From: Escherichia phage ECP2301 | DNA length: 64,000 nt | Direction: 5' to 3' (one strand) | Sequence record: OR880646.1 | Shown: one piece after another, positions 28,311-45,717 of the stretch | Layout of the letters: each line of letters starts with the position of its first letter | How positions within the stretch are numbered: the stretch's first letter is position 1 | Program-made: the position numbers and the translations under genes | Notes under the pieces: generated by a model | The model's database searches: none | Told to the model about the DNA's origin: nothing | The model's input: the letters and a program-made list of their open reading frames with translations, nothing else

Positions 28311-29149
28311 TAGAATGCTCCTTGGAAAATATTATCACCACAAGTAGGTCTATTATACAAATACTCTATGCCACCAGGTTTAATATAGTTCCATGTCTGA
28401 AACGGATGTGTCTGATATGGATGATATAGATGATTATAAGGATTAAATCCAGGCGTTCTCCAGGTAGTGTTCCAACGAAAAGAATCATTTTTAATCATCT
28501 TTTCAATTATATCTTTTATAGCTTTTTCACTATCAAAACTTTCTTTATTTTCCTTTGGTGAAAAAAGCTTATTTTCTACATCATTCCATGTATAAACTCG
28601 CTGCGCAGTTTTTGGAATATTGTCACGCTCTCCTCGAGCCATCCAATAAACAGGAACATTTAATATTTCACTCGCATGATCGCAATGGTGCGCTAGATCG
28701 TCAATATAACAAATCACGTTATATTTCTCTTTTGCCTTTTTGAATAACTCTTCTTTTGAAGAATCATGACCACACATCATTACTTCTGAGAAGGCACCAG
28801 GAAAAAGAGCATTCAAATTAAATTGACGATTCAACAGAGCGTCAATAGAATCACCCAATGCTGTAACAGCTACAAAATTATAATCTTCTTTTAGTTTGTT
28901 AATTACGCACAGGGCATCTTTATATGGAGACAGGTAACGAATAAAATCTGATCGATTGTATTTTTCAATTAGCTTGACACCAAGTTCTTCATCACAATTA
29001 AAGAGTTTACCTGGAGAAATAAATTTCTCATCTTGGATCATTTTTAAAATATGTTCTAACGGAAGATTATATTTCTGAGCAAAATAAGGAAGACCTGATT
29101 GCCAGCTTAAACATACTCCATCAATATCAGTCAAAATAGTAGGCTTCAT
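28310..29149 (-). CDS. 30.2: hypothetical protein with HAD-like N-terminal motif
   Basis: 279 aa; N-terminal ILTDIDGV (DxDG motif I) and later YIDD. Confidence 0.65.
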   Translation of the reverse strand: MKPTILTDIDGVCLSWQSGLPYFAQKYNLPLEHILKMIQDEKFISPGKLFNCDEELGVKLIEKYNRSDFIRYLSPYKDALCVINKLKEDYNFVAVTALGDSIDALLNRQFNLNALFPGAFSEVMMCGHDSSKEELFKKAKEKYNVICYIDDLAHHCDHASEILNVPVYWMARGERDNIPKTAQRVYTWNDVENKLFSPKENKESFDSEKAIKDIIEKMIKNDSFRWNTTWRTPGFNPYNHLYHPYQTHPFQTWNYIKPGGIEYLYNRPTCGDNIFQGAF

Positions 29150-29610
29150 AGAGAGTCTCTTAGTAGGTTTAACACATCAATAAATTCAGCTTCGGTTAGT
29201 ATTGTATCATCTTTTGTTAGACCACTAGCCATGCTGTGCTTCAAAACTTTTCCTTTCGAGGCTTGTAATGCATCACGAAAGCCCCTGTTTTGGATCGCTG
29301 CTTCAAAATATGCATTTGTGTATAATTCTTTCCACGCCGGGGAGTATCTTGAAAACGGAACTCCAAGCCAGAAGAGGGTCCCACGGTCCTGAGCTCTAGC
29401 ATAAGCTCGTCCAGCTTGTTGGGCGGCAAGCCCGGATAACCCAAATATACGACGTTGCTGTTCAATATTTTTCACCTTACACCCTTGGAGGAATCCTTCG
29501 AGACCTCCAAATTGGATACCATCCATAACAAAAGGCCATTGGGCGAAATTACTTAATGCGCATGATGGCCATTTAAAATTGCTTCTTATCTCTAGCTCAG
29601 ACATTTTCAA
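29146..29610 (-). CDS. 30.3: NADAR (YbiA/DUF1768)-like protein
   Basis: 154 aa; LSNFAQWPFVMDGIQF resembles the FSNF..WP..VDG core of YbiA-family proteins. Confidence 0.6.
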   Translation of the reverse strand: MKMSELEIRSNFKWPSCALSNFAQWPFVMDGIQFGGLEGFLQGCKVKNIEQQRRIFGLSGLAAQQAGRAYARAQDRGTLFWLGVPFSRYSPAWKELYTNAYFEAAIQNRGFRDALQASKGKVLKHSMASGLTKDDTILTEAEFIDVLNLLRDSL

Positions 29611-39758: not shown

Positions 39759-39790
39759 AATAAAATGGGCCTTGCGGCCCACTCCTTAAA
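39758..39790 (-). promoter_or_regulatory. denA ribosome-binding region with hairpin between SD and AUG
   Basis: mRNA sense TAAGGAGT-GGGCCGCAAGGCCC-ATTTTATT-ATG: GGAG SD, 14 nt hairpin, then start codon. Confidence 0.45.
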
Positions 39791-40955
39791 AATATTTTTT
39801 AAAACTCATCATAACTTTATCATCAACATCATTATCAATCTGTGCTACAAGGTAAGATGACAGTTCTACTTCTTGTGGCGCGGATTGAACATTATCAGAA
39901 TTAAGATATTCACGAATCCAAGGATACGGATGTTTAACCGGAGCATCGGTAATTGGGCATGGAAGACCACACTGTTTCATACGAGATACAGTTAAGTAAT
40001 CAATAAAGCTCCACATGCTATTTGTATTTAATCCAGGAACATCGCCATCTTTAAATAAATGAACTGCCCAGTCTTTTTCTTGACGGTTAACTTCCATGAA
40101 AATATCAACTGCTTCTTGTTCACACTCTTGGGCAATTTTAACCCACTCATCACCATCAGTGCCAAGTTGAAGTTGACGAATAATATATTGGGTGCCTTTA
40201 AGGTGAAGCTGCTCATCACGTGCAATGAACTTCATAATCTTGGCATTACCTTCCATGATTTCCATGTTTTTATGGAAGTTAAAGGTACATGCGAAAGATA
40301 CATAAAAACGAATAGCTTCCAATGCGTTGATTACATGAAGGCAAAGATAAAGAGATTTCATTAGTGCTCGTTTAGTACATTCAACAACTTTGCCTAACTC
40401 TTCTTTACGAAATCCTTCTGATAAAATTCCTTCATAATCTTCAACAGCATTCTGATATTCACGAGTTTTAACTAGAACATCATCGTAGTAGCGACCAATG
40501 GACTCGGCACGTTTCATAATATCTTCATCTAATACAATCTCATCAAATACCTTTGACGGATCAGTATAAAGATTTCGCATAATATGAGTGTATGAACGGC
40601 TGTGAATAGTTTCACTAAAAGTCCATGTAGCAACCCATGTATCAAGGCTTGGGTCTGAAATTAATGACATAAGTACAGCAGACGGTGCACGACCCTGAAT
40701 GCTATCTAGAAGTGATTGATACTTCAAGTTATTAGTAAAAATATCTTGCTGATACTGGGGAAGCTTGTTAAATTGTGCAGCATCCATCATCAAGTTTACT
40801 TCTTCAGGACGCCAGAAAAATGATAATTGCTTTTCGGTTAAATCTTCAAAAACTTTATGGCGTTGAATATCATAACGCGCAATACCAAGACCTGAACCGA
40901 AGAACATAGGTTCTTTTAAAACATCAACTGGATTTGTATTAAAAACTGTGCTCAT
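39786..40955 (-). CDS. nrdB: ribonucleotide reductase small subunit, uninterrupted
   Basis: 389 aa continuous ORF. Confidence 0.95.
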   Translation of the reverse strand: MSTVFNTNPVDVLKEPMFFGSGLGIARYDIQRHKVFEDLTEKQLSFFWRPEEVNLMMDAAQFNKLPQYQQDIFTNNLKYQSLLDSIQGRAPSAVLMSLISDPSLDTWVATWTFSETIHSRSYTHIMRNLYTDPSKVFDEIVLDEDIMKRAESIGRYYDDVLVKTREYQNAVEDYEGILSEGFRKEELGKVVECTKRALMKSLYLCLHVINALEAIRFYVSFACTFNFHKNMEIMEGNAKIMKFIARDEQLHLKGTQYIIRQLQLGTDGDEWVKIAQECEQEAVDIFMEVNRQEKDWAVHLFKDGDVPGLNTNSMWSFIDYLTVSRMKQCGLPCPITDAPVKHPYPWIREYLNSDNVQSAPQEVELSSYLVAQIDNDVDDKVMMSFKKYF

Positions 40956-41006: not shown

Positions 41007-43271
41007 TCATAATTTACAGGATGAACAATCTTCAGCTTTTGGAGTTTCTATTTCATAATCATCAGTACCAGAACCGTCACGGGTATTATGATAATAGAAA
41101 TTTTTTCCGCCAAAATACCAAAAATACAAAAGGTCATCAATCATTATTGACATTGGAACCTTTCCTTTTGGAAAAATCTGCGGGTCATAATATGTATTCG
41201 CTGAAGCTGATTGACATACCCATTTAAGCATAATAGCTACTTGCGTAAGATAAGGTTTATTACCTTTCTTAGCTAATTTCCACGTATAATCATAGAGGTC
41301 TATGTTATGCTCAATATTGGGCACGACTTGATTAAAGGAACCCTCTTTTGATTCTTTAACAGAGACTGGTCCACGTGGAGGCTCGATACCGTTTGTACTG
41401 TTAGAAACTTGGGAAGATGACTCACATGGCATAAGTGCTGATAATGTGCTATTACGGATGCCAAAGAGCTTAAGGTCTTCCCGCAGCGACGACCAGTCAC
41501 AAACGTATTTTGGAGCTGCGATTTGGTCAATCTTTTTATTGTACCAGTCGATAGGTAATTCGCCTCGAGACCAACGAGTGTCTGAATAATATTCGCAAGG
41601 TCCTTTTTCTTTGGCGAGCTTAATGGATGCTTTAATGAGTCCATACTGTAATCTCTCAAATAGTTCATGTGTTAAATCGTTAGCATCTTCATAAGAAGCA
41701 AAATTACTTGCCAGCCAAGCTGCATAGTTAGTAACACCTACACCAAGGTTTCGACGCTTTTTAGCTTTTTCTGCTTCAGGAACTGGATATCCTTGGTAGT
41801 CCAAAAGATTATCAAGAGCACGAACTTGGACTTCTGCCAATTCATTAATTTTATCTTGGTCTTGCCAGTCAAAGTTATCTAACACAAATGCAGATAATGT
41901 ACACAATCCAATTTCAGCATCAGGACTATTCACATCATTTGTTGGAATAGCAATTTCACAGCACAAGTTGCTCTGACGAATAGGTGCCTTTTCACGAATA
42001 AACGGAGTATAGTTATTCGTATTATCTATGAACTGTACATAAATCCTTGCTGTTCCTGAGCGTTCAGTCATGAGTAATTCAAACAGTTCACGGGCTTTAA
42101 TACGCTTTTTACGAATATTAGGGTCTTTTTCTGCGGCTTCGTATAATTCACGGAAACGGTCTTGGTCTTTAAAATAAGAATAATAAAGCTCGCCACCCAT
42201 TTCATGCGGACTGAACAAAGTAATGTAATCGTTCTTTCCGAATCGTTCCATCATTAGGTCATTCAGTTGAACGCCATAATCCATATGACGGATACGGTTT
42301 TCTTCTACGCCTTTGTTATTTTTCAAAACGAGAAGATTTTCAACTTCCAAATGCCAAATAGGATAATAAGCAGTAGCAGCGCCGCCACGAATTCCGCCCT
42401 GTGAGCATGATTTAACTGCAGTCTGAAAATGTTTCCAAAAAGGAATAACACCAGTATGGCGTACTTCACCTGTGCCAATCTTAGAACCTTCGGCACGAAT
42501 CATACCAACGTTAATACCAATTCCAGCGCGTTTGGAGATATATTCAACAATTGAAGCAGAAGCCTTATTGATAGACTTTAATGAATCACCTGCTTCAATA
42601 ACAACGCATGAACTAAACTGCCGAGTTGGAGTACGGCAACCAGCCATAATAGGAGTTGGTAATGAAATCTGTCGAGTAGATACTGCTTCATAAAAACGAA
42701 TAACGTGTTTTAATCTATCAACAGGTTCATCTTGATGCAATGCCATTCCAATAGTCATAAATGCAAACTGTGGAGTTTCATAAATTTGACCAGTGGTTTT
42801 ATCTTTAACTAGATATTTTTCTTTTAATTGCATCGCCCCGGAATAAGTAAATTCCATATCCCGCTCGTGCTTAATTTTTGATTCTAAAAATGTAATTTCT
42901 TCGGCAGAATATTTTGACAACAATTCAGGGTCGTATTTACCTTCATTTACACAGTAAGAAATATGGTCAATAAATGAACGTGGTTCATACTGCCCGTAAA
43001 CATGCTTACGAAGAGCGAACATTAAACAGCGTGCAGCTACATATTGATAATCAGGCTCTTCAACTGAAATAGAATTCGCAGCAGCCTTAATTACAATGGT
43101 TTGAATGTCATCAGTTGTCATTCCATCACGGAGATATGATTTAATATTTTCATATAATTCATAAGGATCTACAGATGTTCCTTCAGCTGCCCAAGATAAA
43201 ACTTTAATAATTTTTTGCGGGTCAAAGCTCTGAGAAACACCACTACTTTTGATAACATTAATTAATTGCAT
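41007..43271 (-). CDS. nrdA: ribonucleotide reductase large subunit
   Basis: 754 aa ORF. Confidence 0.95.
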   Translation of the reverse strand: MQLINVIKSSGVSQSFDPQKIIKVLSWAAEGTSVDPYELYENIKSYLRDGMTTDDIQTIVIKAAANSISVEEPDYQYVAARCLMFALRKHVYGQYEPRSFIDHISYCVNEGKYDPELLSKYSAEEITFLESKIKHERDMEFTYSGAMQLKEKYLVKDKTTGQIYETPQFAFMTIGMALHQDEPVDRLKHVIRFYEAVSTRQISLPTPIMAGCRTPTRQFSSCVVIEAGDSLKSINKASASIVEYISKRAGIGINVGMIRAEGSKIGTGEVRHTGVIPFWKHFQTAVKSCSQGGIRGGAATAYYPIWHLEVENLLVLKNNKGVEENRIRHMDYGVQLNDLMMERFGKNDYITLFSPHEMGGELYYSYFKDQDRFRELYEAAEKDPNIRKKRIKARELFELLMTERSGTARIYVQFIDNTNNYTPFIREKAPIRQSNLCCEIAIPTNDVNSPDAEIGLCTLSAFVLDNFDWQDQDKINELAEVQVRALDNLLDYQGYPVPEAEKAKKRRNLGVGVTNYAAWLASNFASYEDANDLTHELFERLQYGLIKASIKLAKEKGPCEYYSDTRWSRGELPIDWYNKKIDQIAAPKYVCDWSSLREDLKLFGIRNSTLSALMPCESSSQVSNSTNGIEPPRGPVSVKESKEGSFNQVVPNIEHNIDLYDYTWKLAKKGNKPYLTQVAIMLKWVCQSASANTYYDPQIFPKGKVPMSIMIDDLLYFWYFGGKNFYYHNTRDGSGTDDYEIETPKAEDCSSCKL

Positions 43272-43588
43272 AAGTCCTCAACTTGAAAATCGTCTTTAAA
43301 CAATCGGTTAACTATATGAGCTATTATATCACCATGACACGGCTTTGGTTTACATGTGCATCCTAGCCTCATTCCACGTAAAGGCTCTAAATGTGCTTTA
43401 GTTATTTCTCCGGATTTAATTCGACGTATAAAATCTTTTTTGAATAATTCAATGGCAGCCTCCCGGCTGCCAGCATCTTTACCGACGTAATTTCCCCAAA
43501 ATGTACCACGGTGAATATTAACATCAAAGTCGGATTTATATTTATTCACTACCTGGCATAGACGGCCCGCGCGGTAATAATTCTTCAT
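43262..43588 (-). CDS. DUF4326-like small protein
   Basis: 108 aa; TFWGNYVG and [15 protein letters not shown] motifs. Confidence 0.6.
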
Positions 43589-43817
43589 ATTGTTGTTCCG
43601 TTAAAACAGTAATATCATAGTAGCAATCAGAAGAAGTTTTAACTGTGGAAATTTTATTATCAAAATACTCACGAGTCATTTTATGAGTATAATACTTTTT
43701 ACCATAAATGATAATAGGTTGTTCTGGTCCTGGAACTTCTAACTCGCTTGGATTAGGAAGTGTAAAAAGAACGACACCAGAAGTATCCTTAAATCGTAAA
43801 ATCATATATCCTCTCAA
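43542..43817 (-). CDS. hypothetical protein
   Basis: 91 aa ORF; start uncertain (overlaps previous ORF by 47 nt). Confidence 0.45.
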
Positions 43818-43828
43818 TTAAATTAAAA

Positions 43829-44688
43829 TTACACCGCCATCTTTCCTTTAATTGGCGGGTGAGATACGTAGTTGTTAAGAACAAAATTATGTGGCTTTGC
43901 GAATTGACTCAACCAAAATACCTGTGATTCTGTGTCCCATTCATCAAATTCATCTGGAAATTTTAATTGTAATTCGCATAAATCCATAGGTTCACGACGC
44001 AAAAGTTCTTTACATTGTTCTACGTGATTCATATAGATATGAGTATTACCACCAGAAAATATCAAATCTCCTGGAATAAGATTACACATCTTAGCTACAA
44101 TATGAACTAACGTAGCATATGATGCAATATTAAATGGAAGACCGAGGAAAACATCTACCGAACGTTGATACCACTGCAAATCCAAATAGCCATTACGTAC
44201 GTTAAATTGATAGAACATATGACAAGGCGGTAATGCCATATATTTAAGTTCAGCTGGATTCCATGCAGAAACAATTTGACGTCTATCATTTGGCAATTTT
44301 TTAATACGATCAACAACTTCTATAATTTGGTCTACACCGCCAAAATCACGCCATTGTTTTCCATAAATTGGACCAAGTTCACCGCTATGGTATCCTAAAT
44401 CTTTTGCTTGATTTTCGTAATTTTCATCCCAGACTGTTTTGCCTTGAATTAATGAATCGTGTTGAATTAATCGCAAATCATTGACATTTGTGCTTCCCGA
44501 TAAAAACCATATTAGCTCAGCAATGCAAGCTTTCCAGGCGAGCTTCTTAGTCGTTACTGCAGGAAAACCTTTAGTTAAATCCCAGCGTAATTTAGTACCG
44601 AACAAAGCAATTGTTCCTGTGCCTGTTCGGTCATCGGTTTCATAACCGTTTTCCAGGATATCTTTAATTAAAAATTGGTATTGTTTCA

Positions 44689-44689
<1 letters not shown>
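43829..44689 (-). CDS. td: thymidylate synthase, uninterrupted
   Basis: 286 aa from ATG 44689 (ATGA overlap with upstream ORF stop); N-terminus MKQYQ...; catalytic region PPCHMFYQF; no intron. Confidence 0.93.

Positions 44690-45717
<1,028 letters not shown>

Follow-up and report, generated by a model that had tools for sequence, protein, structure and literature searches.

Bacteriophage T4 is the best-studied phage, and yet its gene nrdA.1 is without an assigned function. The gene and the DUF4326 family to which its product belongs are known and already annotated; the biological role attributed to them is a prediction. The family has about 5000 sequence clusters across phages, archaeal viruses and giant viruses, and an in-silico prediction by Iyer et al. 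holds that its members act on derivatives of nicotinamide adenine dinucleotide (NAD) or ADP-ribose (PMC9503650, PMC7824862). T4 also encodes gp30.3, or AdfN, a NADAR enzyme with anti-DarTG1 activity that reverses the ADP-ribosylation of DNA by DarT1 (PMC11825919). In this work, we have analysed the counterpart of nrdA.1 in a stretch of 64,000 nucleotides (nt) of Escherichia phage ECP2301 (OR880646.1), which we call the window. The window comes from a Tequatrovirus and thus from a T4-like phage, and the open reading frame (ORF) under study is, with near certainty, the ortholog of T4 nrdA.1 and a member of the Pfam family DUF4326. Our analysis leads us to favour, tentatively, the idea that NrdA.1 is a small enzyme that handles the ribose phosphate of a nucleotide or of a molecule derived from ADP-ribose; we regard this as a real possibility that falls short of being probable. 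Since the T4 protein is easily handled, it offers an experimental entry point for assigning a function to the whole DUF4326 family.

The gene and its two conserved motifs are located as follows:

43262..43588, minus strand: nrdA.1 coding sequence, ATG start, 108 amino acids plus stop, a standalone DUF4326 domain (ORF list, Pfam)
43481..43504, minus strand: motif TFWGNYVG, residues 29-36, which holds the family-invariant N33 and the near-invariant G32 (family consensus WGNPF)
43322..43366, minus strand: second motif, residues 75-89, with the invariant C77, C79 and C84 and the near-invariant P81, H85, G86 and D87 (112 members)

An earlier note on this DNA had reported this ORF of 108 amino acids, both motifs and an overlap with the start of nrdA, all of which we could confirm from the ORF list and the DNA. 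It had also assigned the protein to DUF4326, and here the support is strong: the Pfam profile (PF14216) matches residues 12-90 with its positions 2-81 of 82 (E 1.3e-21; 77.5 bits at a curated cut-off of 25), and this is the sole Pfam match of the protein. Conservation was judged, and profiles were compared, on the basis of an alignment of 112 diverse DUF4326 members. Both family motifs are found in NrdA.1, namely D.yIGRG..WGNP within the N-terminal and LGC.C.P..CHGD within the C-terminal half, all family-invariant residues (N33, C77, C79, C84) are present, and the near-invariant D22 and R27 are kept as well. The sole deviation is GNY for GNP: where the family motif has proline, the Tequatrovirus clade has Y, H, D or E (here Y34, 43487..43489). 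More distant T4-like homologs retain GNP. NrdA.1 is a standalone protein; of the best 150 DUF4326 representatives, roughly one in three is a longer protein with several domains.

It is also clear that nrdA.1 is a conserved, real and expressed gene under purifying selection. The closest record for the 1-kb stretch around it, Shigella phage ESh26, has 99.6% identity, and about 490 further records of T-even type have 95-99%. DNA homologous to the nrdA.1 region was found in 514 phage records and matches at the protein level in 1957 (tblastn), and among 1.84 billion cluster representatives searched with a DUF4326 profile, 4954 were retrieved at E<=1e-3. The T4 protein (UniProt P32279; T4p235) has the same 108 amino acids, its gene has the same position between nrdA.2 and nrdA, and the 10-nt and 47-nt overlaps with these neighbours are the same; NrdA.1 of the window is 94-100% identical to the NrdA.1 proteins of many T-even-type phages. 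Compared with an ortholog of 64% identity, the ratio of nonsynonymous to synonymous substitution rates (dN/dS) is about 0.10.

According to the model computed from the diverse alignment (predicted local distance difference test, pLDDT, 91.4; predicted template modelling score, pTM, 0.84), NrdA.1 is a small alpha/beta domain. The predicted elements are a strand (12-15), a second strand (23-24), three helices (36-39, 42-59, 64-70), a third strand (74-77), a loop (78-84) and two further helices (85-96, 103-106). As far as the order of elements goes, which is what we take from the model, the strand 74-77 ends at C77 and is followed by the Cys-rich loop and then by the helix 85-96 that begins with H85; the second motif spans the end of this strand (beta3), the loop and the start of the helix. 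The residues conserved throughout the family, i.e. D22, R27, G32, N33, C77, C79, P81, C84, H85, G86 and D87, sit in the two loops that come after strand 2 and after strand 3. A search of solved structures, which does not settle the fold, returned no close relative of the model, and in a viral structure library the model retrieved DUF4326 proteins only, from phages, haloarchaeal viruses and giant viruses.

DUF4326 has in common with DUF488/RapZ-C an element in which a strand leads into a Cys-containing loop (C..KP..CH) and then into a helix. In an hhalign comparison with a DUF488-N3a profile made from a 122-sequence alignment, DUF4326 reached 64.9% (E 6e-5, 58 columns), which is below the usual confidence level of 90-95%. 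This alignment pairs C77, K80-P81 and C84-H85 of NrdA.1 with the C..KP..CH motif of DUF488 (LLCSEHKPHHCHRR; aligned stretch CLLCSEHKPHHCHRRLVL). There are differences between the two families: DUF4326 has an additional invariant cysteine (C79), Gly-Asp replaces the Arg-Arg or Arg-Ser that follows the histidine in DUF488, and the N-terminal half with VVN...D.yIGRG..WGNP has no counterpart in the DUF488 alignment. When the 112 members were compared with Pfam at E<=10, 16 weakly matched DUF488-N3a (PF22751, best E 0.0017) and one matched DUF488 (PF04343). As for RapZ, an element of its C-terminal domain (IGCTGGKHRSVYIA) resembles LGCT..CHGD by eye, and the equivalent loop of RapZ binds an anion; RapZ-C is a domain that binds a ligand and RNA, not an enzyme. 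Burroughs and Aravind reportedly defined a RapZ-C/DUF488/DUF4326 clade in 2023; this clade is assigned to the rhodanese-phosphatase superfamily.

The domains to which DUF4326 is fused may point to the kind of substrate. Among the best 150 representatives, 48 have a length of at least 160 amino acids, and Pfam identified in this set mSLOG (7 proteins), YAcAr-SLOG (6), NADAR (5), NADAR-DarT1 (1), DprA-like (2), TIR (1) and RNA polymerase (1) domains; a reductase domain was found in none of the 48. This survey thus reproduces the published fusions. Moreover, an anti-Avs LOG-like protein has homologs in amoeba viruses with a DUF4326 domain at the C-terminus (2025 preprint). Since SLOG, NADAR and TIR domains form or cleave ribosyl-N-glycosidic bonds of NAD, ADP-ribose and nucleotides, a ribose phosphate would be a suitable substrate for DUF4326. 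The chemistry of NAD, ADP-ribose and nucleotide signals that these partners perform is that of several bacterial immune systems. The proposal cited in the earlier note, that DUF4326 proteins act on NAD or ADP-ribose derivatives, is plausible, being backed by the published prediction and in agreement with our own fusion survey, and it keeps the rank of a prediction.

For the genomic context we sampled 120 metagenomic viral loci by means of a degenerate DNA pattern for GC.C.P..CHGD, 117 of which contain a true DUF4326 gene. NADAR genes are present in the DUF4326 loci L014 and L118. In two others, DUF488-N3a genes directly adjoin genes for two-domain DUF4326 proteins (L021, 300-1321; L095, 822-1921), and the DUF4326 hidden Markov model recognises the adjoining DUF488 gene of L021 with E 0.015; the two families seem to work side by side. 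The DUF488 protein of L021 is 100% identical to a chromosomal protein of Pantoea agglomerans, so that a prophage or a bacterial island is the probable nature of this "viral" contig. In a Pfam analysis of 254 close neighbours on the same strand, the most frequent families were the large (4) and small (3) subunits of ribonucleotide reductase, thymidylate synthase (4), DNA methylase (4), 5'-3' exonuclease (3), metallophosphoesterase (3), dCMP deaminase (2), DUF488 (2) and T4-type RNA ligase (2-3). RtcB, Macro and a HAD domain of RNA repair turned up once each, and replication genes were present as well.

How might such an enzyme work? We suggest that D22, R27 and N33 (after strands 1 and 2) would form, together with C77, C79, C84, H85 and D87 at the junction of strand 3 and the following helix, a catalytic pocket that binds an anion or phosphate. 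The pocket would be of the strand, Cys-loop and helix type seen in DUF488, in RapZ's C-terminal domain and in Cys-dependent phosphatases, and NrdA.1 might remove or transfer a phosphate that is bound to the ribose in a nucleotide or in a small molecule derived from ADP-ribose. In T4, the protein would act free-standing and be made alongside the enzymes of deoxynucleotide synthesis, and it might either dispose of NAD-derived signals or toxic by-products that arise from host immunity, or return phosphoribosyl compounds to the nucleotide pool of the phage. It is tempting to be more specific, i.e. to see in NrdA.1 a Cys-dependent enzyme that acts as phosphatase or phosphotransferase on a phosphoribosyl compound or an ADP-ribose derivative and is produced in step with the reductase in order to destroy an immune signal or toxin, or to couple breakdown products to deoxynucleotide synthesis; in this detailed form, we consider the proposal doubtful. 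If true, the phosphatase or phosphotransferase activity would be the first biochemical activity for the entire DUF4326 family, and the destruction of an immune signal or toxin would make NrdA.1 a third counter-measure of T4 alongside AdfN/gp30.3. Several observations speak against this enzymatic proposal. The three cysteines C77, C79 and C84 together with the histidine might just as well bind a metal as build a catalytic loop. The protein of T4-like phages is standalone, and its gene lies among genes for deoxynucleotide synthesis and not beside NAD or ADP-ribose genes, and the Tequatrovirus clade has lost the conserved proline of the GNP motif. The similarity to DUF488 amounts to only 65% in hhalign and is limited to the C-terminal half of DUF4326, and RapZ-C, used as a single sequence, gave no hhalign signal with DUF4326. 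Finally, NrdA.1 had no match in PADLOC or NCBIfam, and the literature that we searched contained annotations and predictions but no experimental work on nrdA.1 or on any DUF4326 protein.

The earlier note had gone further and regarded DUF4326 as related to NADAR, with NrdA.1 and gp30.3 as two members of one superfamily; NrdA.1 would then be a second ADP-ribosyl glycohydrolase beside gp30.3. We find no support for this relationship. The hhalign comparison of the DUF4326 profile with a NADAR profile (YbiA plus six NADAR domains taken from DUF4326 fusion proteins and DUF4326 loci) gave 0.1%, be it in local, relaxed or global mode. As a positive control, gp30.3 was recognised by this NADAR profile at 88%. 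Likewise, there was no similarity between NrdA.1 and gp30.3 in BLASTP, and none of the 112 family members matched Pfam NADAR (PF08719, the family of E. coli YbiA and T4 gp30.3) at E<=10. According to the published description, the NADAR fold has a core of five helices with two beta-hairpins, in contrast to the strand, Cys-loop and helix predicted for NrdA.1, and a glycohydrolase activity has been demonstrated for NADAR, whereas any activity of DUF4326 is predicted only. Moreover, the literature assigns DUF4326 to a different superfamily, and the fusion of DUF4326 and NADAR within a single protein speaks for distinct activities that complement each other. That NrdA.1 is a NADAR glycohydrolase is thus highly improbable, and DUF4326 should not be counted as a relative of NADAR. 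What stands of this claim is that gp30.3 is a NADAR enzyme; the description of the two genes as parts of one early region is loose, as gene 30.3 lies 13.6 kb from nrdA.1. A different kind of enzyme, one that processes a terminal 2', 3' or 5' phosphate of RNA or DNA in RNA repair or DNA modification and not a soluble metabolite, is suggested by the company that DUF4326 genes keep in several phages: in Margaery, denA and the genes for RNA ligase and polynucleotide kinase; in Pae01, those for RNA ligase and for a HAD-like protein; gp46/47 in AG3; and a Thg1-like guanylyltransferase, an N4-cytosine methylase and a nucleotidyltransferase in CBB and SNUABM_50. The neighbour survey, which yielded RtcB, Rnl1, 5'-3' exonuclease and DNA methylases, and the fusions to components of replication and restriction-modification (PMC7824862) point in the same direction. 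Such neighbours are, however, typical of any phage early region, for which our counts were not controlled, the commonest fusion partners have small nucleotides or ADP-ribose as their substrates, and NrdA.1 has no recognisable domain for nucleic acid binding, so that we consider end processing unlikely. DNA-end processing is said to have been predicted by Burroughs and Aravind in 2023 for parts of the RapZ-C/DUF488/DUF4326 clade.

The conserved cysteines might also have no part in catalysis at all: C77, C79, C84 and H85 could hold a structural zinc in a small metal-binding protein that serves as a partner, regulator or sponge. Three invariant cysteines and a near-invariant histidine within nine residues, the very small size of the protein with a core of about 85 residues, and the fact that RapZ-C, the sole studied candidate relative, is not an enzyme are all in agreement with this idea. 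In contrast, the near-invariant polar residues D22, R27, N33 and D87 outside the Cys cluster are typical of an active site, DUF488 has glutamate or histidine at the position of C79, which is unexpected for a zinc ligand, and the repeated fusion to enzymes of one pathway suggests a catalytic step; a non-catalytic NrdA.1 is accordingly quite improbable in our view. A last possibility starts from the gene next door. NrdA.1 could be an accessory of the reductase or of dNTP synthesis that works with NrdA and NrdB, be it by serving as a thiol or redox helper through the CxC...CH cysteines, by assisting in assembly or in the handling of metal, or by belonging to the T4 dNTP-synthetase complex. The overlap with the start of nrdA suggests translational coupling, and in T4 the protein shares the timing class of NrdA and NrdB, which differs from that of nrdA.2 and td. 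In the Pseudotevenvirus Margaery the homolog has been relocated and yet overlaps the end of nrdB, and in the Asteriusvirus BAU.Micro_ELP-22 (an Escherichia jumbo phage of 373 kb; L002, 2169-4757) the copy lies between nrdD and nrdG and overlaps nrdG; moreover, reductase and thymidylate synthase domains are the commonest Pfam families among the 254 neighbours. On the other side, T4-like genomes preserve the gene order in the nrdA region anyway, and no reductase gene is nearby in Vibrio phage nt-1, Erwinia phage pEa_SNUABM_50, Shigella phage AG3, Pectobacterium phage CBB, the phi92-like PATM and Pseudomonas phage Pae01; in the Salmonella 7t3 record all neighbours are annotated as hypothetical, which makes it uninformative in this respect. 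A reductase gene lies within 1 kb in only 7 of the 117 metagenomic loci, and de-duplication at 60% identity leaves 3 such cases among 57 clusters. In the de-duplicated set, reductase genes do not become sparser with growing distance from DUF4326, and the fusions involve SLOG, NADAR and TIR but never reductase domains. The adjacency to reductase genes is a T4-like feature with at least one independent case, i.e. it is lineage-specific and not a rule of the family, and we regard a role as reductase accessory as rather unlikely.

In the window, nrdA.1 is part of the gene row frd-td-nrdA.2-nrdA.1-nrdA, all on the minus strand. The features of this region, and gene 30.3, are the following:

41007..43271, minus strand: nrdA, large subunit of class Ia ribonucleotide reductase, 754 amino acids, directly downstream of nrdA.1 and overlapping it (ORF list, annotation of near-identical phages)
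43262..43271, minus strand: 10-nt overlap of the nrdA.1 stop and the nrdA start, ATGCAATTAA, a likely site of translational coupling; also in AR1 and in T4 (142671-142680)
43275..43279, minus strand: GAGGA, a putative Shine-Dalgarno-like sequence for nrdA inside the nrdA.1 codons E104-D105, 3 nt upstream of the nrdA ATG
43542..43588, minus strand: 47-nt two-frame overlap of the nrdA.2 3' end and the nrdA.1 5' end (ORF list); identical in AR1 and T4
43542..43805, minus strand: nrdA.2, DUF5496, 87 amino acids from its ATG, directly upstream of nrdA.1 (ORF list, Pfam)
43829..44689 (or ..44701), minus strand: td, thymidylate synthase, uninterrupted, upstream and co-directional (ORF list, AR1 annotation)
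39786..40955: nrdB, an uninterrupted ORF
29146..29610, minus strand: gene 30.3, NADAR family (AdfN in T4), Pfam Phage_30_3, E 3.7e-69

On the minus strand, the junction reads GAG GAC TTA TGC AAT TAA in the frame of nrdA.1 and ATG CAA TTA in that of nrdA. The GenBank annotation of AR1 names the same ORFs nrdA.2 and nrdA.1, with identical overlaps, and gives nrdA.2 as 264 nt; the product of nrdA.2 matches Pfam PF17600 (DUF5496) with E 3.7e-59, beginning at residue 5 of the listed ORF. In T4, nrdA.1 occupies 142671-142997 and nrdA 140416-142680. No alternative ATG, GTG or TTG is present between M1 of nrdA.1 and the conserved C11. Many distant homologs begin just three residues ahead of this cysteine, and the first eight or so residues of NrdA.1 are therefore not conserved. 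The gap between nrdA and nrdB is only about 51 nt. T4 itself carries group I introns in td and nrdB and a mobE-type insertion in this region, which the phage of the window appears to lack. Around nrdA.1, the missing td and nrdB introns are the sole difference of note between the window and T4.

A time-course study of the T4 transcriptome and proteome placed nrdA.1, nrdA, nrdB and 30.3 in the class "early RNA, late protein", and nrdA.2 and td, just upstream of nrdA.1, in the class "early RNA, middle protein" (PMC9697503, supplementary files 4 and 6). The timing class that nrdA.1 and nrdA have in common, unlike nrdA.2 and td, fits a translational coupling of nrdA.1 with nrdA, and the classes suggest a translational boundary between nrdA.2 and nrdA.1 in T4. 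Between frd and nrdA, we detected neither terminator-like sites nor a promoter-like signal above chance, and no MotA-box middle promoter was found near nrdA.1; the gene is probably transcribed from upstream promoters within a frd-td-nrdA transcript.

The gene name nrdA.1 has left its traces in the databases. PHROG 24867, labelled "ribonucleotide reductase NrdA-like", matches residues 37-100 of NrdA.1, and some GenBank records use a similar "NrdA-like" label. We have rejected this designation: the protein has only 108 amino acids as compared to about 750 of the reductase, and its only Pfam domain is DUF4326, in place of the barrel, all-alpha and ATP-cone domains of the reductase. Other DUF4326 proteins, of 101 (L004, 3480-3785) and 128 amino acids (L131, 2381-2767), are mislabelled in GenBank as well; the labels in use are "putative NrdA protein" and "ribonucleoside-diphosphate reductase 1 alpha subunit". 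These labels result from the T4 gene name nrdA.1 and not from homology to the reductase, and small DUF4326 proteins that are called "NrdA" or "ribonucleotide reductase alpha subunit" are thus misnamed.

Finally, an ORF of 68 amino acids without a Pfam match (44689..44895, minus strand) is located between frd and td. At this place, AR1 carries an ORF of 115 amino acids annotated as "conserved hypothetical", and the shorter ORF of the window may be a variable or decaying insertion.

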